Assembly: GCA_965204505.1 (NCBI GenBank)
Contig: CBDBFB010000004.1
Coordinates: 235,449 to 299,448 of the forward strand
Origin: an uncultured Candidatus Binatia bacterium
Lineage (GTDB): Bacteria > Desulfobacterota > Binatia > UBA9968 > JAJDTQ01
Direction: 5' to 3'
Length of the DNA stretch: 64,000 nucleotides
Shown: positions 8,590 to 58,478 of the stretch, one piece after another
How positions within the stretch are numbered: position 1 is the stretch's first letter
Layout: each line of letters opens with the position of its first letter
Translations under genes and position numbers: made by a program
Notes under the pieces: generated by a model
Databases searched by the model: none
What the model was told of the DNA's origin: nothing
The model's input: the letters and a program-made list of their open reading frames with translations, nothing else

Positions 8590-8677
8590 ACATGACTCCT
8601 TGCAGGGAGGTGCAAAGGATCGTTGGGGCGGGTTTCAGACCCGCCCGTGCATCGGACCGGCGGCCCGGGGCGGGCCT

Positions 8678-9715
8678 TTACATGGCGAACAGCCGCATGG
8701 CGTTGCCGCCCAGGATCTTCTCCTTGTCGTCGGTCGAGATACCTTCCAGCTCCTGCACCATCCGCACCGTGCCTTCCTTCCAGGTGCCCGACGGGTCGTT
8801 GTGCGGGTAGTCGCTGCCCACCGTCAGGTTGTGGTCCTTCCAGAAGTCGCAGGCGTAGCGGATGGAGGTCTCGGCCGCGAAGGCCGACACCCAGATCTGG
8901 CTGAAGAACTCGCTGGGGGTCTTGCCCAGCTTCTTGCGGGCGTCGGGGTCCATGTCCAGGCGGTTCATGAGCCAGGGCACGAACGCTGCCGACCCCTCCA
9001 CGAAACAGATGCGCAGGTCGGGGAACTCCTTCAGGGCGCCGCGCAGGATCAGGCTGCCCATGTCGACGATGTAGCGGAACGGGAACGCCAGCAGGAAGGG
9101 CAGGGCGTTGTTGTCGGCTTCCAGGAAGAGTTGCTCGATGCCCACCAGCGCCGGGTTGGGATGGCCTTGGCGGTCCGACGCCGTGTCGTGCACCAGGATC
9201 GGGACGTCGAGCTGGCACACCTTGTCGTAGAAGGGCCACAGCCGCTCCGCTCCGAGGTTGGCGTCCTCGAAGCCGCCCATGAACTTCACCGCCTTGAGCC
9301 CGAGCTGGTTCACCATCCGGTCCAGCTCCTTGCAGGACTCTTCCACGTCCGGCAGGAACACCCAGCCGACGCCGATGTAGCGCTCGGGATGGGCGCATTC
9401 AGCGAGGTCCCGGGCCACCGCGTCGTTGTAGCGCCGGGCCAGCTCGCAGCCCAGATCCCGGTCCCAGGTGTACAGCAACTCGCGGTTCTCCGGGATGAGC
9501 ACGTGCTTGTCGAAGCCCTCGAAGTCGGCCTGCGCCACCCGGGTGTCCAGGTCCCAGCGCCCCTTGGGCGCCTGGTCCTTGATCAGCGTGCCATCCGGCA
9601 GCACCGACTTGACCTCGTCGCCGTTGCGCACCACGCGCGGCGACTCGGGGTACTGGTCGCTGATGCCTTCCAGGAACTTCACCGGGAAGTAATGAGTGTC
9701 GCAGTCGATGTACAT
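8678..9715 (-). CDS. Amidohydrolase-2 family metal-dependent hydrolase/decarboxylase (ACMSD-like)
   Basis: N-terminal IDCDTHYFP (IDxHxH) motif, HD...D downstream; ATG 9713-9715 with GGAGG. Confidence 0.8.
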   Translation of the reverse strand: MYIDCDTHYFPVKFLEGISDQYPESPRVVRNGDEVKSVLPDGTLIKDQAPKGRWDLDTRVAQADFEGFDKHVLIPENRELLYTWDRDLGCELARRYNDAVARDLAECAHPERYIGVGWVFLPDVEESCKELDRMVNQLGLKAVKFMGGFEDANLGAERLWPFYDKVCQLDVPILVHDTASDRQGHPNPALVGIEQLFLEADNNALPFLLAFPFRYIVDMGSLILRGALKEFPDLRICFVEGSAAFVPWLMNRLDMDPDARKKLGKTPSEFFSQIWVSAFAAETSIRYACDFWKDHNLTVGSDYPHNDPSGTWKEGTVRMVQELEGISTDDKEKILGGNAMRLFAM

Positions 9716-12169: not shown

Positions 12170-12256
12170 GATTCCCGTAGGGCCGACCGGCCGGTTGCCC
12201 TACACGCGCTACTCTGCGGTGGAATTCCGGTAGGGGCGACCGGCGGTCGCCCCTCA
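12170..12256. repeat. Two tandem palindromic repeats of family C (taggggcgaccggcggtcgcccct-type)
   Basis: gtagggccgaccggccggttgccctac then taggggcgaccggcggtcgcccctca; same palindrome at 26-47 and twice at 49465-49531. Confidence 0.7.
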
Positions 12257-20130: not shown

Positions 20131-20178
20131 GGTTGAATCCTCCTTTGATTGTGCCTGTGTTCCCCGCCCGCACCCAAC

Positions 20179-20207
20179 CTGGATTCCGGCTTTCGCCGGA
20201 ATGACGG
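20179..20207. repeat. Family A hairpin core (ctggattccggctttcgccggaatgacgg)
   Basis: Identical core to 1643-1670 and 48592-48620. Confidence 0.75.
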
Positions 20208-20257
20208 ATTCAGGAAATGGTAGGGATCTTCGTATCAGATAATGCCCTGCCTGTTCC

Positions 20258-21218: not shown

Positions 21219-22262
21219 TCACTGTTTCGGCACCAGGATGCTCCTCAACCTGGCCATCAGCTCGGCGTCGAGCTGGAAGAACTCGTTCACCGCCTCGGCG
21301 ACCCGGGGGCCGGGAATGGGGTTGATGATGAGCCTGGACTTCTTCGCCTCGGCCAGCAGTTGTGGGTCCTTGAAGGTGTCGGCGAAGGCCTTGCGCAGGA
21401 GTTCCACGCGGTCCTTCGGCGTGCCCGGAGGCAGCGAGAAGGCCCGCAGGATCTCGTGGGCGTTGCGGCCCACCACGCCGGCCAGTTGCCGCTGCGCGTC
21501 GTTCTTGGCGTATTCCAGGAGGTTCGGGACGTTGGGGAAACTGGGGTGCCTTCCGACGCCCACCTGGATCACGAAGTTCAGCTCTCCCGCGGGGATCCGC
21601 TTCGGCCAGTACGAAAAGATGACGTCGGGGCTCCAGCAGCCGCCCATGACCTCCCGCTTCTCGATGGCCAGGCGGATCCTGGCGGCGCCGCCGTAGCCCT
21701 CGATCAGTTGGAGGGGAACCCCCGTGATGTTTACGAGCAACCTGGGAATGTCCGAGATGGAGCTGCCCGGTCCCATGCCGCCGAGCTTGAGCGGCTTCTT
21801 GGCCGCGAGCCATTCGTCCATGTTGGTGATGCCGCTGTCCTTGGCCACGATGCACGCCGTGTAGCTGGGCTTGGGGACGGTGATCCAGTTGAACTTCCGG
21901 GCATCGAACTTGACCCGCTTGTTCCCCAACACCTGCTGCAGCACCAGGGTCCCCACCCAGTGGCCGATGGTCAGGCCGTCCGGCTTGGCCTTGTTGTACA
22001 TGTAGTTGGCGGCGATGAGGTTGCCGGCCCCGGTCATGCTGGTCACCAGCGTCCTGGGAGTCCCGGGTATATGCTTGGGGAGGTGCCGGGCCACCAGCCG
22101 TGCGTAAGTATCGAAGCCCCCGCCAGGGGCGGAGCCCACGATGATGCGGATGGTCTTGCCCTTGTAGAAATCAGCGGCGGCCGCCGCGGTGGCGGTCATG
22201 CAGACGAAGGCAATGCCCAAGGCAAGGGCGATTCGGAGCACGGAAACACGATTGGGTCGCAT
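21219..22262 (-). CDS. TctC/Bug-like periplasmic substrate-binding protein (tripartite tricarboxylate transporter family), paralog 1
   Basis: Signal peptide then KTIRIIVGSAPGGGFDTYARL motif; ATG at 22260-22262 after AGGAGG (the 8-aa extension to 22286 rejected); two paralogs at 40769 and 45252. Confidence 0.6.
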   Translation of the reverse strand: MRPNRVSVLRIALALGIAFVCMTATAAAAADFYKGKTIRIIVGSAPGGGFDTYARLVARHLPKHIPGTPRTLVTSMTGAGNLIAANYMYNKAKPDGLTIGHWVGTLVLQQVLGNKRVKFDARKFNWITVPKPSYTACIVAKDSGITNMDEWLAAKKPLKLGGMGPGSSISDIPRLLVNITGVPLQLIEGYGGAARIRLAIEKREVMGGCWSPDVIFSYWPKRIPAGELNFVIQVGVGRHPSFPNVPNLLEYAKNDAQRQLAGVVGRNAHEILRAFSLPPGTPKDRVELLRKAFADTFKDPQLLAEAKKSRLIINPIPGPRVAEAVNEFFQLDAELMARLRSILVPKQ

Positions 22263-26700: not shown

Positions 26701-27171
26701 CCGTTCGTCGCCCTCGCGGAACCCCGGGTCGAGTCCGGTCTCCAGGGGGTAGAGCCGCAGCAGCGACGCGGCGAACCCGTGGATAGTGCCGATCTGGGCC
26801 TGCTCCAGGTGTCGCAGCGCCGAGTCGGCGCGGCCGCGCACGTCGTCAGGCGCGAGTCCGTAGCGTCCGCACAGGGCCTCGATCTCGTCGGCCCCGCCGT
26901 CCTGCCGCGGGGGCGCGGCCCCGTGCTCGGCGAGCACTTCCAGCCGGTCGCGCAAACGCGCCTTCATCTCGTTGGCCGCCTTGTTGGTGAAGGTCAGGGC
27001 CACGATCTCGGTCATGGCCACGGGCGCCGGCTCGCGCATCAGCAGGTTCACGCAGCGCTCCACCAGCAGGGTCGTCTTACCGGTGCCGGCCGCCGCGGTT
27101 ACCACCACGTTGCGGTCGAAGGTGGTGGAGGCCAGGCGGCGTTCGCTGTCGTCGGTAGGCGGAGGAGTCAT
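23782..27171 (-). CDS. addA: AddA/UvrD-like ATP-dependent helicase with C-terminal PD-(D/E)XK nuclease
   Basis: Walker A AAAGTGKTTL near N-terminus, UvrD motifs, C-terminal VDVVYERDGQLYVADYKTD nuclease motif; ATG 27169-27171 after GGGAGG. Confidence 0.8.
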   Translation of the reverse strand: MTPPPTDDSERRLASTTFDRNVVVTAAAGTGKTTLLVERCVNLLMREPAPVAMTEIVALTFTNKAANEMKARLRDRLEVLAEHGAAPPRQDGGADEIEALCGRYGLAPDDVRGRADSALRHLEQAQIGTIHGFAASLLRLYPLETGLDPGFREGDERLLTRHFDTAWGLWLDGELSSAGPRTEEWKHVLARFPLERIGELALGLCAENVDLEGIPRAGLSGDPADILAEWLGGLEETVTDLITRHPEQRKNERALAVARKVVRSIRANPAAPVSVDADESSLLQWKPSRVKGWNGDDLDRAATLLKAASALVQVDYEETGRLCALVTPFARQCRADFARKGLVTFDGLLVRARDLLRDHPRIREELKDRYKAILVDEFQDTDPLQYEILLWLCEERSRLAATWRDIRLAADKLFVVGDPKQSIYGFRGADIEAYLKVIQEVIEAQGGTRYPLTANFRSHPRILDVVNGVFSNLIRERPGLQPEYIALQPGVDSASEATSVHAPGPVRLRRATATGHKLNADAGRRLEAESLARWLDEEVVGRVHFHDRDGDLVPARPGHVAFLLRALTNVQVYLDALRRRDIGYVVEGERDFYATQEVVDAVNLLRAIDNPHDRLALVGVLRSPLGGHDDVEIYELSRKRLLSYRLAADPRWVDLPRATLDLYQRLHRLHREARFLEAGQAVERVFRELPLSVLAASTGAGQQAVANLEKIRLVAEETGSEGSGTLKDVVAELERRVLERDNEPESPLEEETLDAVRIMSIHRAKGLEFPMVVLVDALGGTGGNRSPEVEVRRDWATGLAGLRIGEVSSLAGVFLDAKRRDREAYERSRLLYVAMTRPRERLVISFASEGEVKARSDSLLSMLDEATGVSLAQAGPGIVPCGTGEMEVEVVVEDGAAKGGRRKAAQDAGDWTWYEEMWHRRWDDCKTRRQTPLFLTPTRLKAAGEVEEIDTDRARGGGLERDAARMLGTLAHRVLEHWDFETNRVKEDLDQAIARHGADLPAARQQTVARELKDIWTTLTESAVYDELRSAQILGREMHFVMPWNGQIMEGVIDVVYERDGQLYVADYKTDQVTDGDIDRIMHDYRHQARIYTEAVRRTLGRDVAGFKLLLLRLGRGVEVPPGIAGTEP

Positions 27172-27188
27172 GACGTCCCGGCCTCCCG

Positions 27189-27353
27189 CTAGTGTCGCGT
27201 CCCATGATTTCCTGGCATAAGTTGCGCAGGATTTTTTGTTGTCGGCAAGGCGCGATGACGAGCAGTGGCGGGTACCACGCGAGGAAGAGCAACGCAGCCG
27301 ACGGCGAAAAAGACAAGCAAATTATGCCAGGAAATCATGGGACGCGACACTAG
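27189..27353. mobile_element. MITE copy E1 (165 bp, 32-bp perfect terminal inverted repeats ctagtgtcgcgtcccatgatttcctggcataa)
   Basis: Internal 85 bp is reverse complement of the cores of copies at 31279-31443 and 36255-36419; sits between addB stop and addA start; no transposase ORF. Confidence 0.8.
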
Positions 27354-30300
27354 AGCCTCGTCCGCCGGATACTCGCCAACGCCTCCGCCGCGGGATGTGT
27401 GGCGGCGCGCGTGTTCGACGGAAAGTGATCCTTGCGGCAGATCTCCGATACCCGGCAGAAGCGGCAGTAGTCGTCGCTTGGCATTATCGGGAACTCACCG
27501 TCCCGGATGCCCCTGAGCAGGCGCGCCACCGTGTCGCGAATCTTCTCACCCTCGGACTCCCGCCACGAAGATCCCGTGAACGTATTCGCGACCAGCGGTC
27601 CTTCGTCCCAGCGGGGCGCGAGAAAGTACCAGGTAGCGTCGATGACCGCCCCGGCGGCCGCTTCCCTGCCCAATTCGTCACCGGCGGCCAGCAGCAGGTA
27701 GACGGGCAGTTGCAGTCGCCGTCCCTGCACTGCGGCGAGCACCGGGTTCCGGTCCACCGCCCCGGGTTCCTTGCCGCTCTTGTACTTGTAGTCGATGACC
27801 CGGTAGCGGTTGCCGCGCGCATGGTGGTCGATACGGTCGAGCCGGCCCTGAAGCGGGAGCCCGCGCAGGTCCTGCGGCCAGTCCGCGTCGAGCTCCGCGG
27901 TCAGGTTTTTCTCCAGCCCCACCGGGCGGAAGCCGGAGCCGGCCATTTCCTGCCGGTCCACCCGCACCGCCTCGCGCAGCATCGCGAGCATCTCCTCCTT
28001 GGCGGTTTCCCACGCCGCCGGGTAGCCCGTGGGGGCGCGTGTTTCGAAGGCGGACAACACCCCGGCGGCGGCGCCGTCGAGCCACTCGCGCCAGCCGTCC
28101 CCGAGGGCGCGGTCCAGGTCCTCGTAGAACGCCTGAAGGATTTCGTGACAGATCTGGCCCTGCTCCAGCGCCTGGACCGGCGCGGTCCACTCGGGCCGCT
28201 CCAGCCGTTCCAGTTGAAGCACGCGGCCGGCGAAGTACTGGAAGGGGCAGCGCCCGTAGGCCTCCAGCATCGTCGGCGAGATACGGCGTTCCAGGAGTTG
28301 GTCCCATGCTTCCGGCAGGGGGCCGGTGACGCCGTCGAACGGCCCCGGCACGCCGGCGGGGTCGTCGAGCGCGCGGATGGCCGCGAGGCTTCTCTCGAAG
28401 TTGTCCATGGATGCGCCGGCGATGCGCGCTTGCGGGCGCGGGTCCTCGCCGCTCAGCGCCCGCCGCACCGCCAGCTCTTCGGGCAGGAGCCACCGGGGGT
28501 CGTCAAAGGGCGGGGTGTCACGCTTGCCGAGGACGCTCTTGGGAATGGCGCGGGAGTCCGCGTCCGTGGCGGGAGCCAGTTCGCGGAGGTACCACGACGG
28601 CGCCAGCGCCCGTCCGGCCGAATCGGCCCGCGGCCACGTGCAACAGAGGCGCTCGCCGGCCGAACCCGACAGCAGGGCGAACAGCAGCTTCTCCTCGTCG
28701 TAGCCCGCCAGCTTCGAGGAGATCTTGTACCCCAGAACGGTTTCCAGCGTGCGCCGGGCACGGTCCGGCAGGAACGGGTCCTCGCGGATGGTGCGGGGAA
28801 ACACGCCTTCGTTCATGCCTACCAGGAAGAGGGCACGGAACGGGATGCCCCGAGCCGCCCCGGCATCCAACACCTGCACGCCGGGCATGGGAACACGCAC
28901 CAGCGGCACCGAGCCCCGGTCCAGGGCCTTGCGCAGGGCGGCGACGAAATCCGGCAGCGGCACCTTCCCGCCGACGGCGTCCAGGGCGGCCAAACCGTCG
29001 AAGGCATCTTCGAAGGCGCGGGCCACGTCGGCTTCGCCGTCGCCCGGGTCCGTGATGAGGAAGCGGTGGATGATCGCGCGCCAGCGGGCCGCGAGATCGG
29101 ACCAGGCGCCTTCCGGTGGCAGGGCGCTCAGAGCCGCGTGCAAGGCCTCGACGGTGTCCATCAGCGCGCCGATCTGCTCCGGCGCTACGCGGAGGCGCCG
29201 GCCTTCGTCCTCCTCGTCCACCAGGCTCAAGTCGAGTCCGGTGTCGCGGTAGCGTTCCAGGCGCCGCCACTCGCCCATGCCGCGGCCGATGCCCAGCCAC
29301 CGAGTGGCCACGTCCCACAGTTCGGGCCGGGGCTCGGCTGCGCCGCCCCGGACCTCGGCGAAGTTGAAGTGATGGGATGCCAACAGGTCGACGACGCCGG
29401 CGCGTGGATAGTCCCGGACCGGCAGGTCCAGCAGCGCCAGCACGGCCCGGACCCGCTGGAAGCGATTAAGCGGCTCCCGCGCGGGGGTGTGATAGGGGAT
29501 GCCGTGGGCGGGAAAGATCTCCCTGATCCAGGGAAGGTACGGGTCGAGGGTGCGCGCCACTACCCCCACGTGCCGGAAATCGAGACCTTCCTCCTCCGCC
29601 AGCCGTAGCGCCTGCTTGGCCACGGTCACGATCTCGTCCCGCGGACCGGCGCAGCTAAGGACCTCGCGCCGGGGCATGGGGCCGGCGCCGGTTTCCGCGT
29701 CGCCGTCCAGCAGGTCCACGACGTCGTCCGTCCCGGCAAGGCCGCGCAGGTAGCGGTCATGGAAGTCCTGGGCGAAGGACCAGTCCGGGTGTCCTTGGGC
29801 GAGCGGGTAGAAGAGGGTCACCGGGAAGCTGGCGGCAATGCTCCGGAAGAGCTCCAACTGCGTCTGGGTCAACTCGTAGAAGCCGTAGTAGCAGATGCGC
29901 TCGAATTGCCCGAGCCAGCGCGAGAGAGGCGCCTCGGCCGCCGCCTGGCCGTCGAGGTCCTGGTGGTCTCGGGCCTGCCATTCGGCGAAGCGGCGTGTCA
30001 CCTCCCGGTACAACACGAACAGATCGTACAGCGCGTCCCGGTCCCTGCCCGCGAAATGCCCTTCACGCACTGCCTCCAGCGCCGGCTCGGGATCTACCAT
30101 GGCGTCCTTGAGATCGCGCAGGCTCTGCCACAGCGCGGCGCACCCCCCGTCATTGTCCGCGATGCGCGCGAAACGCCCATGGCCGGGGAGCACGCGTTTC
30201 AGCGCCTCCTCCAGGAAGGTCTCGTCGCGGACCGAGGGTTCCGCCCCGCGCGCCTCCCGAAAGAGTTCCTTGGTGAGCTGGGAAAAGCTCAGGATGCGGA

Positions 30301-30478
30301 AGTTCAACAGGTGGAGGCCGTGTTCATGCGCCAGCAGGACCTTGACGCGCCGCCGCAGGGTCTCCGAGGGCACCACCAGCAGCAGCGGGGCGAGCGGGTC
30401 CCTCTCGCGGTGCTCCCGGATCTCCTCCGCAAGGGCGCCTTCCAGTTGGGGGTGGTAGGGACCAAGAACGATTTTCAT
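27350..30478 (-). CDS. addB: AddB-like PD-(D/E)XK nuclease/helicase subunit with C-terminal Fe-S Cys cluster
   Basis: Start MKIVLGPYHP at 30476-30478; C-terminal RVIDYKYKSGK nuclease motif and CRFCRVSEIC cluster; stop TAG lies inside MITE E1 terminus; N-terminal 240-aa extension in ORF track rejected (overlaps MBL gene on other strand). Confidence 0.75.
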   Translation of the reverse strand: MKIVLGPYHPQLEGALAEEIREHRERDPLAPLLLVVPSETLRRRVKVLLAHEHGLHLLNFRILSFSQLTKELFREARGAEPSVRDETFLEEALKRVLPGHGRFARIADNDGGCAALWQSLRDLKDAMVDPEPALEAVREGHFAGRDRDALYDLFVLYREVTRRFAEWQARDHQDLDGQAAAEAPLSRWLGQFERICYYGFYELTQTQLELFRSIAASFPVTLFYPLAQGHPDWSFAQDFHDRYLRGLAGTDDVVDLLDGDAETGAGPMPRREVLSCAGPRDEIVTVAKQALRLAEEEGLDFRHVGVVARTLDPYLPWIREIFPAHGIPYHTPAREPLNRFQRVRAVLALLDLPVRDYPRAGVVDLLASHHFNFAEVRGGAAEPRPELWDVATRWLGIGRGMGEWRRLERYRDTGLDLSLVDEEDEGRRLRVAPEQIGALMDTVEALHAALSALPPEGAWSDLAARWRAIIHRFLITDPGDGEADVARAFEDAFDGLAALDAVGGKVPLPDFVAALRKALDRGSVPLVRVPMPGVQVLDAGAARGIPFRALFLVGMNEGVFPRTIREDPFLPDRARRTLETVLGYKISSKLAGYDEEKLLFALLSGSAGERLCCTWPRADSAGRALAPSWYLRELAPATDADSRAIPKSVLGKRDTPPFDDPRWLLPEELAVRRALSGEDPRPQARIAGASMDNFERSLAAIRALDDPAGVPGPFDGVTGPLPEAWDQLLERRISPTMLEAYGRCPFQYFAGRVLQLERLERPEWTAPVQALEQGQICHEILQAFYEDLDRALGDGWREWLDGAAAGVLSAFETRAPTGYPAAWETAKEEMLAMLREAVRVDRQEMAGSGFRPVGLEKNLTAELDADWPQDLRGLPLQGRLDRIDHHARGNRYRVIDYKYKSGKEPGAVDRNPVLAAVQGRRLQLPVYLLLAAGDELGREAAAGAVIDATWYFLAPRWDEGPLVANTFTGSSWRESEGEKIRDTVARLLRGIRDGEFPIMPSDDYCRFCRVSEICRKDHFPSNTRAATHPAAEALASIRRTRL

Positions 30479-30559
30479 GGCGCAGCCGGAATCTCCGAGA
30501 AATTTGGCAGACCCGGCACGCGTTGCCAAGGTCAATCCGGCGCTGCTAATCTCCGCCCC

Positions 30560-31282
30560 GTGAGAGTCCATTTTCTCGGCTCCGGCGATGCCTTCGGCAG
30601 CGGCGGCCGCAACCAGACCGCCTATCTTCTGGAGGACCACTCGCGCCTTCATCTCCTCGACTGCGGGCCGTCCACGCTGCCGGCCTTCAGGCGCGCCGGT
30701 CTGGACCCGGCGGCGCTGGACGCCGTGATCCTGAGCCACCTCCACGGCGACCACTTCGGCGGCTTGCCCTTCTTCTTCATCCACTACCTGTATGATCGGC
30801 CCCGGAGCCGTCCGCTGGAGGTGGCGGGCCCGCCCGGCACCGAAAGGCGCGTGCGCGATCTCATGAGGCTGATGTACGGGGAGAAGGCGCTGTCCTTCGT
30901 CGCCTTCGTCGAGCTGGTGCCGGACGCCGTCACCGCCGTGGCCGGGGCCGAGGTGCTGGCCTTCCGTGTTCCGCACCAGACCGACGCCGTCTCCCTCGGA
31001 CTCAGGGTCACGGTGGCGGGACGCACGGTGCTCTTCTCCGGCGATTCGAGCTGGACGGACCAGTTCATCACCCACAGCCGGGGCGCCGACCTGTTCATCT
31101 GCGAGTGCTGCCACTACGACGCCCCGTCCCCCTCGCACATGAGCTATGTGGAGATCGCCGCGCGCCGGGAACGCCTGGAGTGCAAGCGGCTCATCCTGAC
31201 CCACATGGGCGAGGAGATGCTGGCCCGGCGCGGGTCGTTGCCGGTCGCCACCGCGGAGGACGGCCTGGTGTTGGAAGTCTAG
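30560..31282 (+). CDS. MBL-fold metallo-hydrolase
   Basis: HLHGDH motif, N-terminal VHFLGSGDAFGSGG; GTG start at 30560 (uncertain); stop TAG coincides with CTAG terminus of MITE E2. Confidence 0.6.
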   Translation: MRVHFLGSGDAFGSGGRNQTAYLLEDHSRLHLLDCGPSTLPAFRRAGLDPAALDAVILSHLHGDHFGGLPFFFIHYLYDRPRSRPLEVAGPPGTERRVRDLMRLMYGEKALSFVAFVELVPDAVTAVAGAEVLAFRVPHQTDAVSLGLRVTVAGRTVLFSGDSSWTDQFITHSRGADLFICECCHYDAPSPSHMSYVEIAARRERLECKRLILTHMGEEMLARRGSLPVATAEDGLVLEV

Positions 31283-31443
31283 TGTCCTGTCCCACGTAAT
31301 TCATTACCGATATGCTTGTCTTTCTTGTCGTCGGCTGCGTTGCTCTTCCTCGCGTGGTGCCCGCCACTGCTCGTCATCGCGCCTTACCGACCACAAGAAA
31401 TCCTGCGCATCTTGGTAAAGAATTACGTGGGACAGGACACTAG
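31279..31443. mobile_element. MITE copy E2 (165 bp, 24-bp TIR ctagtgtcctgtcccacgtaattc)
   Basis: Near-identical to copy E3; same internal core as E1. Confidence 0.85.
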
Positions 31444-31644
31444 GGCAGGCTGGGGCGCGTCCCGGAAATCAGTTGACGGCGGGCGGACGTGATTCGTGCC
31501 CTGGATCGACCACCCGTCCCTTGCGCGAAGCACGACGCGCGGTCCTGCTGCAACCGTCTCCTGATTTCAGGGACGCGCCCCAGCCTGCCCCCGCCGCAGC
31601 GCCCAAAACTTGACATCCCGCCGTGCGTCTCCTACAACCCCGCC

Positions 31645-31929
31645 ATGCCTAGAGTCACTTTCATGCCGCTGGGGCAGAGCTTCGAGGTCGAGGACGGCAC
31701 CACCATCCTGGTGGCGGCGATACGCAACGGCGTCAAGCTTCGCCACGACTGCACCGAAGCCATCTGCGGTACCGACAAGGTGAAGATCCTGGCGGGCGAG
31801 AACAACCTGAGCCCCATGGACGACAACGAGGAGCTCACGCTGTCCATGCTCGAGTCGGACGCCGCGGACCGCCTGGGATGCGTGGCCAAGGTGCTCGGTG
31901 ACGTGATCGTGGAGATTCCCGCCGAGTAG
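31645..31929 (+). CDS. Small ferredoxin-like (beta-grasp, possible 2Fe-2S) protein
   Basis: 94 aa MPRVTFMPLGQSFEVEDGTTIL... with HDCTEAICG; only three Cys so cluster type uncertain. Confidence 0.35.
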   Translation: MPRVTFMPLGQSFEVEDGTTILVAAIRNGVKLRHDCTEAICGTDKVKILAGENNLSPMDDNEELTLSMLESDAADRLGCVAKVLGDVIVEIPAE

Positions 31930-31960
31930 CCCCCATGTCGACGACAACCTGGAGGCCCAA

Positions 31961-32815
31961 ATGAGCAGAGTCAAGGAAGCTCTCGACCGCAAGGGAACCC
32001 TGGTCATGCCCGGGGTCTACGACGCCCTGAGCGCGCGCATTGCCGAGCGCGCCGGCTTCGACGTCATCTTCACCACCGGCTACGGCATCTCGGCGACGCT
32101 GTTGGGGGAGCCGGACTTCGGCATCCTGACCCAGAGCGAGATGCTGAGCACCATCTACCGCATCTGTGGGGCGGTGCCCACGCCGGTCATCGTGGACTCG
32201 GACACCGGCTACGGCAACGCAGTGAACGTGGTCCGCACCGTCACCGAGCTCAAGCGGGCGGGGGCGGCCGGCATGTTCCTGGAAGACCAGATCTGGCCCA
32301 AGCGCTGCGGCCACATGAGGGGCAAGCAGGTGGTGCGGCTGGACGAGTATCTCAAGAAGCTCAACGCCGCGGTGGGCGCGAGGGAAGACGGCGACCTCTT
32401 TATCGTGGCGCGCACCGACGCCCGCCAGGCCCTGGGCCTGGACGAGGCCATCCGGCGCGGCATCGCCTTCAAGGAGAACGGCGCCGACGCGGTGTTCATC
32501 GAGGCGCCGGAGACCCGCGAGGAGATGCGGGAGATCGCCCGCAACATCCCGGGGCCGCTGGTGGCCAACATGATCGAGCGCGGGGTCACGCCGCTGATGA
32601 CGCCGGCGGAGCTGGCGGATCTGGGTTTCGCGCTGATCGTCTGGCCCGTGGGTCCGCTCTACTCCGCGGCCATGGCCCTCAAGAACTACTACTCCAACCT
32701 CAGGGAGCAGGGCACCGGCGAGGCCCTCATGGACCGGCTGCTGCCGTTTGACGAGTTTCACCAGATCGTGGGGCTGGAGGAGAAGTACGCTCTGGACGAA
32801 AAGTACCGGACGTGA
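31961..32815 (+). CDS. Isocitrate lyase/PEP mutase superfamily enzyme (2-methylisocitrate lyase / carboxy-PEP mutase, PrpB-like)
   Basis: KRCGH catalytic motif, DSDTGYG, EDQ blocks; ATG after GGAGG. Confidence 0.8.
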   Translation: MSRVKEALDRKGTLVMPGVYDALSARIAERAGFDVIFTTGYGISATLLGEPDFGILTQSEMLSTIYRICGAVPTPVIVDSDTGYGNAVNVVRTVTELKRAGAAGMFLEDQIWPKRCGHMRGKQVVRLDEYLKKLNAAVGAREDGDLFIVARTDARQALGLDEAIRRGIAFKENGADAVFIEAPETREEMREIARNIPGPLVANMIERGVTPLMTPAELADLGFALIVWPVGPLYSAAMALKNYYSNLREQGTGEALMDRLLPFDEFHQIVGLEEKYALDEKYRT

Positions 32816-33749
32816 GGTCCTCCCTCAGCGGTAGCGGAGTCATGACCCCGTCCGGCAGGTCCAGCAGCAGCCGGCGCAACTCTCTCAGGTCGGCTTTCAG
32901 GTTCAAGCCGGCGATCTGGCCCATGAGGTCCGTCATGAGCCGGGCGTCGTCCGCGACGCCGTAACGGTGGACCTGGAAGTAGGCCTTCCCTTCGCTCACA
33001 CCCACCTTGGCGTGCTGGTAGAGCACCCGCACGGGCGTGCCTTTCGGCACCCGTGGATACAGGTAGGCGATGTCCTCGGGATACAAGCGAATGCAGCCGT
33101 GGGTCACGCGGCGGCCGATGGCCCAGGGGTTGTTGGTGCCGTGGATGCCGTAGGTGGTGTGGGACAGCCGCATCCAGTATTTGCCCAGCGGGTTGTCCGG
33201 TCCCGGCGGGACCACCTTGCGCGGCACCTCCATCTCCGCCTGGATCGATTTCGGTACGTACCAGGTGGGGTTCGTGCGCTTCTGCCCGACTCGATAGGTC
33301 CCGTCCGGCGTGTTCTGGCCCTCCCTGCCCACCCCGAGCGGGAAGGTCATCACTCTTGAATCGGGCAGGTAGTAGTAGAGCCGCATCTCGGGAATGTTGA
33401 GAACGAGTCCCTCCCTCGGGGCGTCGGGAAGAATCCACCGGGAGGGGAGGGTGACCCACGTGCCTTCGCCGGGGAGCCAGGGGTCGACGCCGGGGTTGGC
33501 CCGTTTCAACTCCCGGTAGCCGAGGTGATACAGGCGGGCGATGTCGAGGAGGGTGTCCTTGTGCTCGGCCACGTGTATCCCCGGGAGGCCGATGATGGTG
33601 GAAGCGGCGTCCGGGTCCGCGGCCTCGGTTTCCGGGGGCTCCCGATATTCGAAGACGGTAGTGGCCGGCGTCCACTCGTACGCCAACGCGGGCAGCCCCA
33701 ACGCCGCCAGCCCAACGGCCATCAACACCCCCAGAGACATTCCCTTCAT
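32727..33749 (-). CDS. L,D-transpeptidase (YkuD domain) with LysM-like domain, secreted
   Basis: Signal peptide MKGMSLGVLMAVGLAALGLPALA; HGTNNPWAIGRRVTHGCIRL catalytic His/Cys motif; 3-prime end overlaps convergent PrpB-like gene by 89 nt. Confidence 0.75.
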   Translation of the reverse strand: MKGMSLGVLMAVGLAALGLPALAYEWTPATTVFEYREPPETEAADPDAASTIIGLPGIHVAEHKDTLLDIARLYHLGYRELKRANPGVDPWLPGEGTWVTLPSRWILPDAPREGLVLNIPEMRLYYYLPDSRVMTFPLGVGREGQNTPDGTYRVGQKRTNPTWYVPKSIQAEMEVPRKVVPPGPDNPLGKYWMRLSHTTYGIHGTNNPWAIGRRVTHGCIRLYPEDIAYLYPRVPKGTPVRVLYQHAKVGVSEGKAYFQVHRYGVADDARLMTDLMGQIAGLNLKADLRELRRLLLDLPDGVMTPLPLREDLTSGTFRPERTSPPAPRSGETRQTAAAGP

Positions 33750-33901
33750 CGCACCCCCCTGCTGGGATCGTACCGGCTACGGAAACCCCGCCTCGCGCGG
33801 ACCCTGAAATGCCCGGCTCGGTTCGAGCTCCCAAGGACGGTTGAAATGTGTAGCCCCGGATTATACCATCTTTTGCGCACACCGTTTAGAAAGGACCGCA
33901 A

Positions 33902-34765
33902 ATGCCGTTCGTCGCCGCGATGGCCGCAAGCCACGCACCCAACATGCTGCTCGATCCGGGCGCCGAGTGGGAGGAGTTCATGAAGCTCCACTACCGCATG
34001 GCGCCGCAGGCGGCCGGCGGGAAGCCTTCCCTGGAGACGCAGCAGAAGCTGCGCGAGGACGCGGAGGGCGCCTTTTCCGTGCTTCGCGCCGACATGGAAG
34101 CCGCCCGGCCCGACGTCCTGATCGTGGTCGCCAACGACCAGTTCGTGAACTTCTTCTTCGACAACATACCGACCTTCTTCGTCACCCTGGCGGACGAGGT
34201 CCGCGGCCGGTTCACCCGCTACGACTTCCACTACCGGAATCACCCCGAGCTGGGGCGGGCCATCCTGGAGGCCGGCGTGGCAGCCGGGCTGGACCTGTCC
34301 TTCGGCGAGGACATCGAGCTGCAGCACACGCAGATGGTGCCGCTCCACTTTCTGCTCCCGGAGCCCGAAATCCCCATCCTGCCCATTTTCGTCAACACCT
34401 GGATCGACCCGCTGCCGACACCTGCCCGGTGCTACGCGCTGGGAGGCCTCATCCGGCAGGTGGCGGACGCCGCCGCCGAGCGGGTGGCCATCCTCGCCAC
34501 CGGCGGCCTGTCGCACTTCCCGGGCTCGCCGCGCATCGGCGAGATCGACACCAGCTTCGATGAAGGGCTACTCCGGCAGATGCGCGCCGGCGAGGGCCCC
34601 GCGTTGGCCGGCCTGACCCTGGAGGAGTTGCGGCAGTCGGGAAACTCCGAGTTCCTGAACTGGATGGTCACCATCGGCGCCGTCAGCGACACTCCGGCCT
34701 CCGCCACCTTCTACATGCCCGACCACGTCGCCACCGGGTGGGGGTTCGTGAGCTGGAAGCTCTGA
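33902..34765 (+). CDS. Class III extradiol ring-cleavage dioxygenase catalytic subunit (LigB family)
   Basis: N-terminal AASHAPNM, later HTQMVPLHFL and ATGGLSHFPG blocks typical of LigB/DODA. Confidence 0.75.
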   Translation: MPFVAAMAASHAPNMLLDPGAEWEEFMKLHYRMAPQAAGGKPSLETQQKLREDAEGAFSVLRADMEAARPDVLIVVANDQFVNFFFDNIPTFFVTLADEVRGRFTRYDFHYRNHPELGRAILEAGVAAGLDLSFGEDIELQHTQMVPLHFLLPEPEIPILPIFVNTWIDPLPTPARCYALGGLIRQVADAAAERVAILATGGLSHFPGSPRIGEIDTSFDEGLLRQMRAGEGPALAGLTLEELRQSGNSEFLNWMVTIGAVSDTPASATFYMPDHVATGWGFVSWKL

Positions 34766-34808
34766 TTCGCGGACCCGCGGGCCGGCACCAGGAACACGGG
34801 AGCATCGC

Positions 34809-35054
34809 ATGAGCCGCTACCATCTGAACCGGTTTCTCTTCGACCTCAAGATGAAGCCGGCCACCCTGGACCGGGCGCGCGTCGACCTGGACGGGGCCTT
34901 GTCGGGCTATGACCTGAGCGCGGAGGAGATCGCCGCCGTCAAGAGCGGAGATCCGCGGCAGTTGAGGCCGCTGGGCGCCCACGGCATGCTGTCGCTGTAC
35001 CTGATGCGGCTGGACTCGGAGTTCGACGACAACATCTACTGGACACAGAAGTGA
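34809..35054 (+). CDS. LigA-like small subunit of aromatic ring-opening dioxygenase
   Basis: 81 aa MSRYHLNRFLFDLKMKP... resembles LigA N-terminus; located downstream of LigB-like gene (order reversed from canonical ligAB). Confidence 0.5.
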   Translation: MSRYHLNRFLFDLKMKPATLDRARVDLDGALSGYDLSAEEIAAVKSGDPRQLRPLGAHGMLSLYLMRLDSEFDDNIYWTQK

Positions 35055-35126
35055 AGGCGGGCGTCCGCCGGCACGCCGCCCGAAGGCGGGCGCGGCGGAT
35101 GCGGTAACCTAGAAAGAGGAGCTTGG

Positions 35127-35918
35127 ATGGACCTGGGACTGGCAGGCAAGGTGGCGCTGGTGGGCGGCGCGAGTCAGGGGATGGGAAAGGCGATCGCCAA
35201 GGGTTTCGCCGCGGAGGGGGCGAAGGTGAGTATTTGCGCCCGCGGCGGCGAGGCGCTGGAACGCGCCGCGGACGAGATCCGGAAAGAGACGGGGGGCGAG
35301 GTTCTCGCCACCGTCGCGGACATGTCCAAGTACGATGATATACGGAACTTCGTCGACAAGAGCGTCGACGCCTTCGGGCGGGTCGACGTCATCGTGAACA
35401 ACGCCGGCGGACCGCCGTTCGGCGCGTTCGATGCGTTGAGCGAGGACGACTGGAGCGCGGCCTACAACCTGAGCCTCATGGGCACGGTCAGGCTGACGCG
35501 CGAGGCGGTGCCGCACATGAAGAAGGTGGGGGCGGGGCGCATCATCAACATCACCTCCTACGGCATCAAGGAGCCCATTCCCAACCTGATCCTGTCGAAC
35601 ACGTTCCGCACCGGCGTGGTGGGATGGACCAAGACGCTGTCGCGCGAGCTGGCGCCCGACAACATCCTCATCAACACGGTGATGCCCGGACGCATCGACA
35701 CCGAGCGCCATCACAACCTCAACGTGGCGCGGGCCAAGCGGCTCAACCTGCCGCTGGAGCAGGTTCAGGAACAGAGCAGGGCGGAGATCGCCCTGGGCCG
35801 TTTCGGGCAGTCCGAGGAAGTCGCCGACCTGGTCGTGTTCCTCGGCTCCGACCGCGCGAGCTACATCACGGGGACGGCGCTCCTGATCGACGGCGGGCTG
35901 GTCAGGACACTCATGTAG
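35127..35918 (+). CDS. SDR-family oxidoreductase (3-oxoacyl-ACP reductase-like)
   Basis: GGASQGMGKA glycine motif, NNAG, YxxxK (YGIKE?) region; ATG after GAGGAG. Confidence 0.85.
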   Translation: MDLGLAGKVALVGGASQGMGKAIAKGFAAEGAKVSICARGGEALERAADEIRKETGGEVLATVADMSKYDDIRNFVDKSVDAFGRVDVIVNNAGGPPFGAFDALSEDDWSAAYNLSLMGTVRLTREAVPHMKKVGAGRIINITSYGIKEPIPNLILSNTFRTGVVGWTKTLSRELAPDNILINTVMPGRIDTERHHNLNVARAKRLNLPLEQVQEQSRAEIALGRFGQSEEVADLVVFLGSDRASYITGTALLIDGGLVRTLM

Positions 35919-35928
35919 GGAGGCGATC

Positions 35929-36258
35929 ATGGTCACCTATGTCGTTCAGTGGGACCTGCCCGACCAGAAGGCGAACCTGACGATCTACAGCAACAAGGCC
36001 AAGAACGACTGGCTGCCCATGACGCTGGCGGCGCCCGGGGTCAAGGAAATCCGCAATCTCCGAAACCCGCTGGAGGTGAGCCCCCAGGTCGCCATCATGA
36101 TCGAGTTCGATACCCCGCAGGCGTGGGAGAGCTACATCGAGTCGCAGGACTACATCCGCATCATGCGCGAGCTGAGAATCCTCGGCTGCACCAACTTCAA
36201 CGCCCAGGTCTGGTTCCCGTCCCGCTACTTCCCGGAATCGCTCAAGCCGGGGAACTAG
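35929..36258 (+). CDS. Hypothetical protein (109 aa)
   Basis: ATG after GGGAGG, coupled to SDR stop; stop TAG coincides with CTAG terminus of MITE E3. Confidence 0.45.
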   Translation: MVTYVVQWDLPDQKANLTIYSNKAKNDWLPMTLAAPGVKEIRNLRNPLEVSPQVAIMIEFDTPQAWESYIESQDYIRIMRELRILGCTNFNAQVWFPSRYFPESLKPGN

Positions 36259-36419
36259 TGTCCTGTCCCAGGTAATTCTATACCGATATGCTTGTCTTTC
36301 TTGTCGTCGGCTGCGTTGCTCTTCCTCGCGTGGTGCCCGCCACTGCTCGTCATCGCGCCTTGCCGACCACAAGAAATCCGGCGCATCTCGGTAAAGAATT
36401 ACCTGGGACAGGACACTAG
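36255..36419. mobile_element. MITE copy E3 (165 bp)
   Basis: ~95% identical to E2 including 24-bp TIRs. Confidence 0.85.
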
Positions 36420-40768: not shown

Positions 40769-41803
40769 ATGACCAGTCGATTTCTCCGTATCCTCATGGT
40801 TTCGGCGCTTGTCCTTGCGCTGGTCCCGTCTCTGGCGATGGGAGCTGACGACTTCTTCAAGGGCAAGACCATTCGTTTCGTGGTCGGATTCTCTCCGGGC
40901 GGCGGGTTCGACACCTACACCCGGCTGATTGCCCGCTACTTCGGCAAAAATGTCCCCGGCAACCCCAGGACGGTGGTCCAGAACCGGACCGGCGCCGGCA
41001 GCATGATCGCCGCCAACTACATCTACGCCAAGGCCAAGCCCGACGGCCTGACCATCGGCAACTGGATCGGCCCCCTGGTGCTGCAGCACGTGCTCGGCAA
41101 GAAGGGCATCCGGTTCGACGGGCGCAAGTTCAACTGGCTCGGTGTCCCGTCCACGGACGACAACACCTGTGCGCTCACCAAGGCCAGCGGCATCAGCAAC
41201 GTCAAGGAGTGGCTCAACTCCAAGAGGCCGGTCAAGATCGGCGCCACCGGTCCCGGCTCGACCACCGATGACGTGCCCAAGCTGATCAAGGCCGCAACGG
41301 ACCTGCCGATACAGATCATCGAGGGTTACGGCGGTACCGCGATCATACGGCTGGCGGCGGAAAAGGGCGAGATCGACGGCGGCTGCTGGGCGTGGCAGTC
41401 CATCAAGCCGACCTGGAGCCAGGGTATCGAAAGCGGCAACGTCAAGCCCGTCCTCCAGGTGGGCCCCGACAAGCATCCTGACCTCAAGGACGTGGGGGTG
41501 GCATTCGATTTGGCCAAGGGCGACACCGGCAAGAAGCTGTTGGGGGTGGCGGCTGACGTCTACCGCGCCCTGTCGCGGCCCTACAGCCTGCCGCCCGGAG
41601 TGCCCGCGGACCGGGTCAAGACGCTCCAGAAGGCGTTCGCGGATACCTTGAAAGACCCCGAGCTGGTCGCCGCCGCCAAGAAGGCGAAGGTGGAGTTGAA
41701 CCCGCACGACGGCAATTGGGTGGCGAAGAAGATGCAGGGGCTCTACGACATGGACGCCGACACGTTGGCCTTGTTGAAGAAGACCCTATTGCCGAAAAAG
41801 TAG
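40769..41803 (+). CDS. TctC/Bug-like periplasmic substrate-binding protein, paralog 2
   Basis: ATG 40769 after AGGAGG; signal peptide; KTIRFVVGFSPGGGFDTYTRL; directly upstream of TctA/TctB permease gene. Confidence 0.65.
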   Translation: MTSRFLRILMVSALVLALVPSLAMGADDFFKGKTIRFVVGFSPGGGFDTYTRLIARYFGKNVPGNPRTVVQNRTGAGSMIAANYIYAKAKPDGLTIGNWIGPLVLQHVLGKKGIRFDGRKFNWLGVPSTDDNTCALTKASGISNVKEWLNSKRPVKIGATGPGSTTDDVPKLIKAATDLPIQIIEGYGGTAIIRLAAEKGEIDGGCWAWQSIKPTWSQGIESGNVKPVLQVGPDKHPDLKDVGVAFDLAKGDTGKKLLGVAADVYRALSRPYSLPPGVPADRVKTLQKAFADTLKDPELVAAAKKAKVELNPHDGNWVAKKMQGLYDMDADTLALLKKTLLPKK

Positions 41804-46301: not shown

Positions 46302-46363
46302 CGGCGGCTTCGGACCCGGCCGACATCGCGCTGTCCAGGCACGGGCGGGTTTGAAACCCGCTC

Positions 46364-46819
46364 CTAAGCCTCCTTGCCGCGAATCAGCCGCTCCACCGTG
46401 TAGTCCATGACCGTCTCGTCGCGCTGGTTTTTCACCACGTGCCGGCAGCGGACGATTGCGGCGTTGCGGGTTTTGGTCCGGCGGCTTTCGAGCACTTCGA
46501 TCTCGACGCCGATGGTGTCGCCGACCTTGACCGGGCGGTAGAGCCGCATTCCTTGCAGGCCGACGAAGGCCAGACCCGTGCCGTGGATCATGCCGGTCTG
46601 AGTGGTCAATCCTTCGGCCAGCGCGAAGGTGAGGCTGCCCGGCGCGATGCGCCCACCGTACTCGGTCTCGTTCCGCATGTACTCCTCATCGATGAACAGA
46701 GGCTCCATGAGGCCGGCCAGGTTGACGAACTGGACCACGTCCGTCTCGGTTACGGTGCGCCGGGCTGTCCGGTGGATGTCGCCCGGCCGAAACTCCTCCC
46801 AGGTCATCCCATGTTGCAT
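46364..46819 (-). CDS. MaoC-like (R)-specific enoyl-CoA hydratase / hotdog-fold dehydratase
   Basis: 151 aa with hotdog-fold hydratase pattern (TETDVVQFVNLAG...GGRIAPG...). Confidence 0.7.
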   Translation of the reverse strand: MQHGMTWEEFRPGDIHRTARRTVTETDVVQFVNLAGLMEPLFIDEEYMRNETEYGGRIAPGSLTFALAEGLTTQTGMIHGTGLAFVGLQGMRLYRPVKVGDTIGVEIEVLESRRTKTRNAAIVRCRHVVKNQRDETVMDYTVERLIRGKEA

Positions 46820-48485: not shown

Positions 48486-48591
48486 GTCGCGTCTCCTTTC
48501 CGGGCCATGCCGCGGTGTCCGGTGTACGGGTGGTCCGTGGTTCCTTGTAGCAGTACGTCTACATGCGGCCAAGGTTTGGATGAGTCCTGGA

Positions 48592-48690
48592 TTCCGGCTT
48601 TCGCCGGAATGACGATACGGGATGTCGGAGCCATGTCCATAACCACGGAGAGTTTTGACACAGGCTGTTTCGCGGGAATTTCGCGGGAAT
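48592..48690. repeat. Family A ~100-bp arm, single copy
   Basis: ~85% identical to reverse complement of 1503-1601. Confidence 0.75.
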
Positions 48691-48773: not shown

Positions 48774-49469
48774 ATGACCGGAAGGGAATTCGTCGAGTCC
48801 TTGTGGAGCCGGTACCACGATGAGTTGGAGGGGCCCGTCATCGCCATCCGCAAGGCGTTGGCGGAGCTCGATCCACAAAGCCCGGAATTCGTCGGCCTCA
48901 TGCAGCGGCAGGCGAAGAAGGAATTGGCCCACGCGGTGGCGTTCACCAAGGCGCTGCTGCAATACGGCGAGCTGGAGCCCCACGAGCGCGCCGGCGTGGC
49001 CGAGCAGGCGGCCGACGAGTACAAGCACTACGCGCTCATCTACGACTACCTCGCCGTCCGCGGCGCCGCCGACGATATTCCCGCGGAGGCCTACGACGGC
49101 TACTTCGGGCAGTTCCTCACCGGCGACGTGCGCGCCTTTCGGCTCTGCAACATCGCCGAGAAATCCGCGGTGGTGTTCATGGAGCACATGAGGGACGTCA
49201 CCCCCGATCCGGTGGTGCGTCAACTCGCCAAGGACATCGTCGACGACGAGGAAGGCCACGAGGACATGGTCATGGAGAAGCTGGCGCGCTTCGCCGAGGA
49301 CCCCGGCAACCGCGAGTTCCTGGAGAACATGTTCGTCCAGAGCTGGACCAGCCAGAAGGAAGGCGTGATCCGCGAAGGACGCGAGCTGGGCATCGACGTC
49401 GACGCGATCCTCGACCGGTTCAAGGACCGCGCCGCGGGCCGCCCGGCCGGCAGCCGGTCCGACCTGTAG
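48774..49469 (+). CDS. Ferritin-like di-iron superfamily protein, hypothetical
   Basis: ATG 48774 10 nt after GGGAGG; paired E..H motifs (KELAHAV, DEEGHED). Confidence 0.5.
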   Translation: MTGREFVESLWSRYHDELEGPVIAIRKALAELDPQSPEFVGLMQRQAKKELAHAVAFTKALLQYGELEPHERAGVAEQAADEYKHYALIYDYLAVRGAADDIPAEAYDGYFGQFLTGDVRAFRLCNIAEKSAVVFMEHMRDVTPDPVVRQLAKDIVDDEEGHEDMVMEKLARFAEDPGNREFLENMFVQSWTSQKEGVIREGRELGIDVDAILDRFKDRAAGRPAGSRSDL

Positions 49470-49531
49470 GGGCGACCGGCGGTCGCCCATGCGGAGGCGC
49501 CCACAAGGGGGGCGACCGCCGGTCGCCCCTA
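49465..49531. repeat. Two family C palindromes in tandem
   Basis: gtaggggcgaccggcggtcgccca and ggggggcgaccgccggtcgcccctac. Confidence 0.7.
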
Positions 49532-49599
49532 CAATGGGGTCCCCGCGATGCACCCCGGGTCCCTGCAGCGCGAGCCCCGGCCCGTTCCCGTCCACGGCT

Positions 49600-54933: not shown

Positions 54934-55106
54934 CGGGATTTGCCACCCAAGTGTGGTTCGCCGGACTCGGCAAAATGCGGTGCCCTAGTTTATCTGACAG
55001 GATGGCGGCGGAGTAAAGGCTGTACTCCAGAATCTGCGCTAGCGGTCCTTTCTCGTGGGCATCGACCAGACTCGACTCACCCAAGGCCCGTTTCTGATAT
55101 GGGCTA

Positions 55107-55520
55107 CTAACCGCCCGTGGTGGAAGTAGTAGCGCCTGCCTGTCTCTTCTTCTGTTCGTCGTCGGCTTTCTTCTTCAGCAAGTCCGGACGGCGAATGCCC
55201 ATCTTTGTAAAAAGGCTAAATACAGCATCACTGCCTCCTGCGACGAGCAAACCAGTTATTACACGTCCGAGGAAAGTACTTTGAGTCTCTTTTCCAAGAG
55301 AGGCGATTATTTCTTGAAAGAGGTCGATGTCGTAGTGGTAGAGCAAAAATATGGCGAGAATTACCGTTATTGGAGTCTTGACACCCTTTCCTTCACAGTA
55401 TCGAGCGAATATGCGCCACTGGAAGATCGGCGTTAGCGCAACTTCAAATGCTACCGCAATCACTGCTAGTACCATGACCACGTCTGCTACGTGCTGAAAG
55501 TTGACTTGTAATCCGCCCAT
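55107..55520 (-). CDS. Small integral membrane protein (3 predicted TM), last gene of CBASS-like island
   Basis: 137 aa, three hydrophobic segments, ~48% GC. Confidence 0.45.
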   Translation of the reverse strand: MGGLQVNFQHVADVVMVLAVIAVAFEVALTPIFQWRIFARYCEGKGVKTPITVILAIFLLYHYDIDLFQEIIASLGKETQSTFLGRVITGLLVAGGSDAVFSLFTKMGIRRPDLLKKKADDEQKKRQAGATTSTTGG

Positions 55521-55652
55521 GCCATCTCCTTTCTTGCGACGATGGATTCCGAGTATCGGCCTTTGTTTCTACTGGATCATCTCTTTCCCATTCCAACACA
55601 TCACCTTCCCCTCCATTTCTAATACTTCTGGCCCAGGAAGCAAAGTAGATAG

Positions 55653-56129: not shown

Positions 56130-56132
56130 AGG

Positions 56133-58363: not shown

Positions 58364-58478
58364 AGCCGTTCCCTTGGTATTGTCTTTCCTCCAGGACCGC
58401 TTGACCCACGATACTAGGTATGGTTCAAGCGTGCATGGATTCCAGCATACCGTACCAGTCTATGAAACACAAGTCCAT

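Follow-up and report, generated by a model that had tools for sequence, protein, structure and literature searches.

Hairpin repeats in a Candidatus Binatia genome as probable IS630-type miniature inverted-repeat transposable elements with a conserved core

A 64,000-nucleotide stretch of an uncultured Candidatus Binatia genome (GenBank assembly GCA_965204505.1, contig CBDBFB010000004.1, positions 235,449 to 299,448; hereafter the window) carries three copies of a 165-bp repeat with complementary ends. Copy c1 occupies the gap between addB and addA, c2 follows a gene of the metallo-beta-lactamase fold, and c3 follows a gene for a 109-aa protein (35929-36258) that is 98% identical to P0001. In all three cases the upstream gene stops at the TAG contained in a terminal CTAG. 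An earlier reading of the DNA letters (the sequence-only reading) had placed three copies of a new MITE (miniature inverted-repeat transposable element) here, and each was present exactly where it had been placed (Table 1). Copies c2 and c3 are 96% identical over 165 nt, and c1 is inverted relative to both, with 84% identity over 134 nt and 91% over 103 nt. The perfect terminal inverted repeats (TIRs) of 24-32 bp that had been described also hold, perfect complementarity running over 32 bp in c1 and over 24 bp in both c2 and c3; the arms of the three copies reach 37 nt at 92-97% complementarity. When the 64-kb window was searched, the terminal strings CTAGTGTC and GACACTAG were confined to the six copy ends. 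A shared core does exist, as had been claimed, and extends over about 95 nt between c1 and c2/c3, but the string quoted for it is 70 nt long, not 85; it is exact in c2, with one difference in c3 and a few in c1. The peptide that recurs on translation was correctly dismissed as spurious, being merely the reading frame that continues past the TAG of the upstream gene.

Each copy folds as one continuous long hairpin, with a minimum free energy of -86 to -94 kcal/mol (z ~ -13), and none of 200 shuffled sequences folded as well as a copy. Scores with the family covariance model (CM), R1, differed between the two strands of every copy. They were 152 bits on the + strand versus 68.8 on the - strand for c1, 139.6 on - versus 63.8 on + for c2, and 142.9 on - versus 66.9 on + for c3.

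We then scanned one genome per species with the pattern CTAGTGTCNNGTC-N(124-154)-GACNNGACACTAG. At least 120 loci were obtained from this genome scan and, likewise, at least 120 from a metagenome scan. The copies do not form a local family of three, as relatives of them occur in at least 15 phyla. Pseudomonadota, Thermodesulfobacteriota, Binatia, Acidobacteriota, Actinomycetota, Chloroflexota, Nitrospirota and Bacteroidota are among the matches listed, as are Verrucomicrobiota, Planctomycetota, Gemmatimonadota, Latescibacterota, Eisenbacteria, Caldisericota and Bacillota. Carriers among these matches include isolates of Pseudomonas, Tahibacter and Castellaniella, the complete genome of Desulfosediminicola flagellatus, and long-read chromosomes. 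Element lengths centre on 164-168 nt, and base composition tracks that of the host. None of the viral contigs searched carried the element. In a BLAST search of plasmids the window copy gave no match and a Pseudomonas-type copy one marginal match, so that the element is nearly absent from plasmids.

The target site was assessed on 117 non-redundant metagenome elements, using a search pattern that left the outer C and G free. The base 5' of the TA at the ends of these elements was C in 88%, T in 8%, A in 3% and G in 1%, and positions -2 to -6 showed no preference. The two flanks varied independently (e.g. T..G, C..A), whereas the inner G and C were invariant. Therefore, the element proper spans the 161 bp GTGTC...GACAC and duplicates TA, with a preference for CTAG, entered at its central TA. 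Insertion of IS630 elements at CTAG with duplication of TA is established. CTAG is scarce in the window (52 observed versus 87-204 expected; the host genome has 67% GC), and because it is rare in this genome and often contains a TAG stop, the copies supply upstream stop codons. The association with TAG stops is thus as expected from the target preference plus purifying selection. Among the genome-scan loci listed, about 40% of ends carry a terminal TAG that closes an open reading frame (ORF) of at least 100 codons, and the element showed no preferred orientation relative to such ORFs (31 versus 29). With greedy ORF calls, 34 gene stops fall on a terminal TAG. Convergent gene contexts (22) outnumbered divergent ones (10), orientations in tandem contexts were balanced (16 versus 13), and no bias was found relative to GC skew (45 versus 57, p = 0.17). 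This lack of bias against genes and GC skew argues against both a cis-acting RNA role linked to the upstream gene and single-stranded transposition on the lagging strand.

The sequence-only reading had proposed a check for insertion-site polymorphism between strains. The window is syntenic with metagenome-assembled genomes (MAGs) of Candidatus Binatia, from which ten syntenic loci (L121-L130) were recovered, and relatives whose flanking DNA is 92-96% identical lack all three window copies. At the c3 site, L126 reads ...gagaaCTAGcctgta... with a single CTAG, versus ...gggaaCTAG(157 nt)CTAGcctgta... in the window. Between an 81-aa ORF and an SDR gene, L121 carries a c1-type copy with identical arms; L123 has no copy there, and neither has the window, which shows a CTAG at 35109. 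Similarly, a site after tctA is occupied in L121 and L123 and empty in L122. There are thus three clean pairs of filled and empty sites, c3 plus the two relative-specific ones, with a single CTAG at each clean empty site, and the copies come and go between close relatives. The elements have been recently active in this lineage.

The closest empty allele at the c1 site is in L127, where addB is 7 codons longer and overlaps the start of addA. Therefore, insertion of c1 shortened addB and uncoupled it from addA. The addB/addA overlap in relatives is 4 nt (window junction 27171-27352). In the window, the hairpin brought in by c1 (about -89 kcal/mol) stands 17 nt upstream of the ATG of addA, whose Shine-Dalgarno sequence, GGGAGG, is kept. 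At the site between the 81-aa ORF and the SDR gene, which is occupied in L121, deletion scars were seen in L122 (~9165-9185) and L128 (~9160-9185), comprising gcgacactag and gacgcgacaccag; copies are thus not only gained but also lost, through imprecise deletion. A more distant Binatia MAG (L067, 83% identical) has an element at the orthologous c3 site (6276-6440) in which the core is reversed and the arms are different. Either an independent insertion into that CTAG or an inversion of what lies between the arms could account for this. L067 also has a truncated family copy, at 7161-7291.

As had been noted in the sequence-only reading, no transposase is encoded in or close to the copies within the window, and a tblastn search with two IS630 transposases agreed. 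A connection to a transposase came from a family member without the usual interior. Locus L090 is a perfect 178-nt palindrome, the arm of which encodes a 25-aa ORF rich in GC at third codon positions (GC3-rich) and ending in FATDDARVKLWRLYPTCDV before its stop codon. In a tblastn search against plasmids, this 25-aa relic matched the C-termini of annotated IS630-family transposases. The insertion sequence (IS) ISPna1 of Polaromonas naphthalenivorans plasmid pPNAP02 (L252 706-1888, 1179 bp) has two overlapping ORFs that both match NCBIfam NF033545 (IS630 family transposase). Its left end, CTAGTGTCGCGTCATGAGG... (CTAGTGTCGCGTCATGA...), and its right end, ...TCATGACGCGACACTAG, equal the MITE termini including the flanking CTAG. 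ISs of Nitrococcus mobilis and of metagenomes, with transposases 75-77% identical to that of ISPna1, have the ends CTAGTGTCATGTCACG...AAATGTCG, and the same outer (CTAGTGTCnnGTC) and inner (AAATGTCG) boxes recur in many MITE lineages. ISPna1-like ISs (NF033545; Pfam DDE_3, PF13358) therefore share with the MITE an identical terminal sequence, CTAGTGTCnnGTC... / ...GACnnGACACTAG, and a flanking TA within CTAG, but they are 1.18-1.23 kb long with a two-ORF transposase, whereas the MITE is 161 bp, noncoding, and has a core that the ISs lack. Together with the TA (CTAG) duplication at filled and empty sites, these identical ends support the original view of the copies as non-autonomous transposons. 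The sole co-occurrence seen is in L215, where an ISPna1-like IS adjoins a core-bearing MITE via a common CTAG.

Autonomous copies were also sought between like termini 0.2-4 kb apart in the loci searched, and only a different IS630 element was found, in L031. This frameshifted IS630-family element (4469-5730) belongs to another subgroup (ends GTATTTAGTTCTT...) and has inserted into the TA of the CTAG that ends a MITE. Behind it lies a TA-flanked 12-nt 'mini' remnant, GTGACAGGACAC, which resembles a product of internal deletion or abortive repair.

The complementary ends of the elements had been taken for long TIRs. The complementarity is real; however, the two arms act as a covarying base-paired stem and not as two independently drifting binding sites. 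Covariation was measured on an alignment of 84 sequences, in which standard pairs filled 86% of cells versus 33-41% when the partners were slid, and cells changed on both sides numbered 1050 versus 368 in shuffles. Every variable position of stems P1 and P2 shows four to six pair types. The interior of about 70% of elements is a length-conserved core of about 80 nt. On one strand it reads, in order, stem, CAAGGCG, a 4-bp helix, GA C GA, a hairpin, GA G GA, the returning helix, a CAA bulge, CGC and the returning stem. The core contains three tandem G·A/A·G steps. Most sequences have G·A/A·G at three paired positions, the rest have covarying Watson-Crick pairs there, and the C-G pairs between the steps swap to G-C. 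The purine-core strand was the more stable in 86 of the 87 genome-scan elements listed (mean difference 15 kcal/mol) and in all 84 independent metagenome elements (13.7 kcal/mol), or 170 of 171 together, and G·T-type arm mismatches on this strand outnumbered those on the other (225 versus 78, p = 1e-17).

The core was sought in ISPna1-like ISs and not found; it is therefore not what a deletion left of such an IS. Of 119 elements, 35 combine the same ends with other interiors, so the core is not strictly required for carrying the ends. Conversely, the family core, with an R1 score of 64.8 bits, occurs together with ERIC-like TATACTC ends in a copy from Flavobacteriales (L089 6638-6792), which indicates that the core can be combined with another IS630-type end set. 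A coding core, considered since its frame in phase with the upstream stop is GC3-rich, was rejected, as the helices covary and orientation is random. The differences between copy c1 and the element in L009 are confined to positions 16-24 and are present on both arms; an exotic arm-copying mechanism was set aside for this pattern, because a single gene-conversion tract across the inner part suffices.

We hold with high confidence that the copies are hairpin MITEs of IS630 type (ISPna1 type) which target CTAG and belong to a pan-bacterial family. Their mobility, TA duplication, preference for CTAG, end identity with the IS630 family and covariation are matters of observation, and from these we infer a resident ISPna1-like partner in this lineage. 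Several results weigh against this assignment. A tblastn search of the window and of Binatia loci totalling about 250 kb found no ISPna1-like transposase. The inner arms (positions 14-37) differ between c1 and c2/c3 and from the inner box of the ISs, and therefore a single transposase would need to recognise little beyond about 13 bp. The nearest empty alleles at the c1 and c2 sites read TTTG and GTAG, not CTAG. Finally, a plain double-stranded cut-and-paste model leaves unexplained why the arms covary almost perfectly, why G·T and G·A are biased to one strand, and why a core absent from the ISs is conserved across phyla. The kind of element is already known, as an IS630-derived MITE, and the family is new as far as the literature and Rfam can tell, with ISfinder outside the comparison; a literature search for the string 'CTAGTGTC' returned primers only.

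The covariation, the steadier purine-core strand in both element sets, the G·T-type arm mismatches on that same strand, the alternation of tandem G·A steps with Watson-Crick pairs, and the many copies at the 3' ends of genes would all suit an element that is a structured RNA first, either a small RNA or a cis-acting element of the 3' untranslated region or intercistronic space, with the inverted ends as its closing stem. We consider this improbable. Orientation to flanking genes is random, both for ORFs stopping at a terminal TAG and in tandem contexts, no promoter was noticed on reading the sequences, and the core is lacking in about 30% of elements with the same ends. The sequence-only reading had named membership in a known structured-RNA family as the finding that would overturn it, and neither the window nor 18 loci of diverse phyla gave an element match at the gathering score of any Rfam family; the sole match obtained in E-value mode was a spurious snoRNA (E = 0.38). 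Above all, presence/absence polymorphism with TA duplication and ends identical to those of an IS mean that the element has spread as DNA, with which a core cargo having an RNA role may be compatible.

Spread as DNA might also proceed through a single strand, as for REPIN-like or IS200/IS605-like elements mobilised by an HUH/Y1 enzyme (RAYT or TnpA), and the apparent CTAG duplication would then consist of the left-flank target plus a copy borne by the element. Such a route requires intramolecular pairing and favours one strand, both of which fit the hairpin, and GTAG- and CGTC-tagged repetitive extragenic palindromes (REPs) coexist with the family in the window and nest inside its members. Nevertheless, the ends belong to a DDE element of the IS630 family and have no GTAG or CGTC head, both flanks vary independently, as TA duplication predicts, and there is no bias with GC skew or gene direction, so that we regard mobilisation of this kind as very improbable. 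A chance palindrome or an assembly artefact is next to impossible. The general caution due to MAG-derived sequence is all that speaks for it, and it is refuted by the three copies in the window, the hundreds more in isolates and long-read chromosomes, the host-adapted base composition, and the z value of about -13.

The sequence-only reading had likened the copies to Correia and ERIC elements. For ERIC the architectural likeness stands, as both are TA-flanked long hairpins that are steadier on one strand; the profile tests failed, and the resemblance is architectural only. ERIC, with MITEEc1, MITEPlu5 and MITEYpe1, consists of TA-flanked hairpin MITEs like the window family. ERIC-type elements have been attributed to IS630-type transposons and are highly polymorphic between Photorhabdus strains (PMC6267812). 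In the ERIC consensus one finds the family's junction words, CAAGGCG ... CAACGCAG, which a stem closes, and tandem G·A steps as well (GUGAGUGA / UGAGCGAA) (PMC2759123). Its strand asymmetry is in the same direction as that of the family (-61.8 versus -45.2 kcal/mol). In contrast, ERIC is 127 bp long with TATAC(C/T)C ends and is known from enterobacteria and vibrios, whereas the window copies are 165 bp long with CTAGTGTC ends. CM R1 gave no match on E. coli ERIC, the core model R2 gave a non-significant 10.6 bits (E = 1.2; L131 20015-20113), and a profile hidden Markov model comparison (p ~0.012) was counted as non-significant. Of the described analogues ERIC is the closest, and it works alike, with homology or membership undemonstrated by profiles. 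Correia of Neisseria and Nezha of cyanobacteria are likewise small TA-duplicating hairpin MITEs, often co-transcribed with their neighbours (see also the table in PMC3184786); they differ in ends and interiors, are each restricted to one lineage, and were set apart by their descriptions only. MITEPsy1/2 and YPAL/RU-2 are unrelated by sequence.

REPs and REPINs are also abundant extragenic hairpins (PMC3733652), and occur in the window. They are 20-40 bp long, lack a TA duplication, have GTAG or CGTC heads and are tied to RAYT, whereas the family is 165 bp long with TA duplicated and CTAGTGTC ends; membership in REP/REPIN was rejected on ends, size and duplication. GTAG-tagged REP hairpins of the GTAGGGGCGACCGGCGGTCGCCCC type lie at 24-49, 12231-12256, 49467-49492 and 49507-49532, and in relatives such REPs sit within the apical hairpin of family members, twice at the same position (L121 8999-9184, L070 1225-1360). 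CGTC-tagged REP-like repeats (CGTCATTCCGGCGAAAGCCGGAATCCA) lie at 1553-1691, 20157-20226 and 48585-48638, partly as inverted doublets, and similar repeats stand in for the core in some elements elsewhere (L008, L094).

Table 1. Coordinates of the three copies, their parts and associated sites in the window
Feature	Position	Strand	Remark
Copy c1	27189..27353	+ (purine-core CAAGGCG...CAACGC strand)	165 bp including both flanking CTAGs; addB/addA gap
c1 left arm, stem P1	27189..27225	.	outer box GTGTCGCGTC equals the ISPna1 inverted repeat
c1 conserved core, 78 nt	27233..27310	+	P2, CAAGGCG/CAACGC junction, tandem G·A helix CGATGACGA/GAGGAAGAG, apical hairpin
c1 right arm, stem P1'	27317..27353	.	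37 nt, 97% complementary
addB stop TAG	27350..27352	-	supplied by the terminal CTAG of c1
Copy c2	31279..31443	-	165 bp
c2 left arm	31279..31315	.	inverted-repeat arm
Metallo-beta-lactamase-fold gene stop TAG	31280..31282	+	within the CTAG of c2
c2 conserved core	31322..31399	-	core of c2
c2 right arm	31407..31443	.	inverted-repeat arm
Unoccupied CTAG target	35109..35112	.	between the 81-aa ORF and the SDR gene
Copy c3	36255..36419	-	165 bp; orthologous L126 site empty, one CTAG
c3 left arm	36255..36291	.	inverted-repeat arm
109-aa gene (35929-36258) stop TAG	36256..36258	+	within the CTAG of c3
c3 conserved core	36298..36375	-	core of c3
c3 right arm	36383..36419	.	inverted-repeat arm

Several other features of the window were recorded. 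Next to c2 lies a second hairpin of about 148 bp (31443-31590), and the terminal G of c2 is common to both. This hairpin has 37-nt arms, 92% complementary (GGGCAGGCTGGGGCGCGTCCCGGAAATCAG...), that resemble family arms (GCGTCCCGGAAATC); it has neither CTAGTGTC nor the core and was detected by neither CM. Relatives carry a GGGCGGGTTTCAAACCCGCCC hairpin in its place. Hairpins of the GGGCGGGTTTGAAACCCGCCC type lie at 8612-8650 and 46339-46377, and the same type is found downstream of the beta-lactamase-fold gene in relatives. An inverted repeat of 314 nt with 75% complementarity (21874-22187 and 40835-41148, 18.6 kb apart) probably reflects paralogous genes. A low-GC island (55100-58400, GC 0.55-0.59), in which CTAG is dense, contains a SMODS/CD-NTase gene (56133-57332, - strand) and a patatin-like phospholipase gene (57329-58363, - strand), a pair that looks like a CBASS-type defence operon, and is adjoined by a Peptidase_M78/IrrE-like gene (58841-59431).

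Each copy is a 161-bp noncoding unit, flanked by duplicated TA and inserting almost always into CTAG. According to the mechanism that we favour, an ISPna1-like IS630-family DDE transposase would move it in trans, and an enzyme of this type would also be the one acting in this genome. Arms plus core stay paired in a single long hairpin, with the three tandem G·A/A·G steps on one strand. Our best guess at the reason is that fold-back or cruciform pairing brings together two ends at short range for synapsis, the element being shorter than DNA's persistence length, with the core serving to stabilise or mark the fold. Effects of an RNA hairpin on neighbouring transcripts, for example at the addB-addA junction, would be a by-product.

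More tentatively, and with appreciable doubt, the core of about 80 nt, conserved in 15 phyla or more, can be proposed as a functional nucleic-acid module that acts on one strand, as single-stranded DNA, cruciform or RNA. It might serve as an end-pairing enhancer of transposition or as a binding structure for a host factor or the transposase, and it would have been joined to at least two IS630-type end sets, possibly including ERIC. If true, this module would be the real reason for the success of these MITEs.

For annotation, the family means that such elements provide stop codons, create 'pseudocoding' ORFs and set strong hairpins (-85 to -95 kcal/mol) within operons. For transposon biology, a widespread orphan hairpin repeat is tied to a defined subgroup of IS630, with two 'TIRs' whose mutual pairing is under selection. 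Should the core have a function and be common to ERIC, two old questions about ERIC-type repeats, their manner of spreading and the reason for their strong conservation, would also become open to test.

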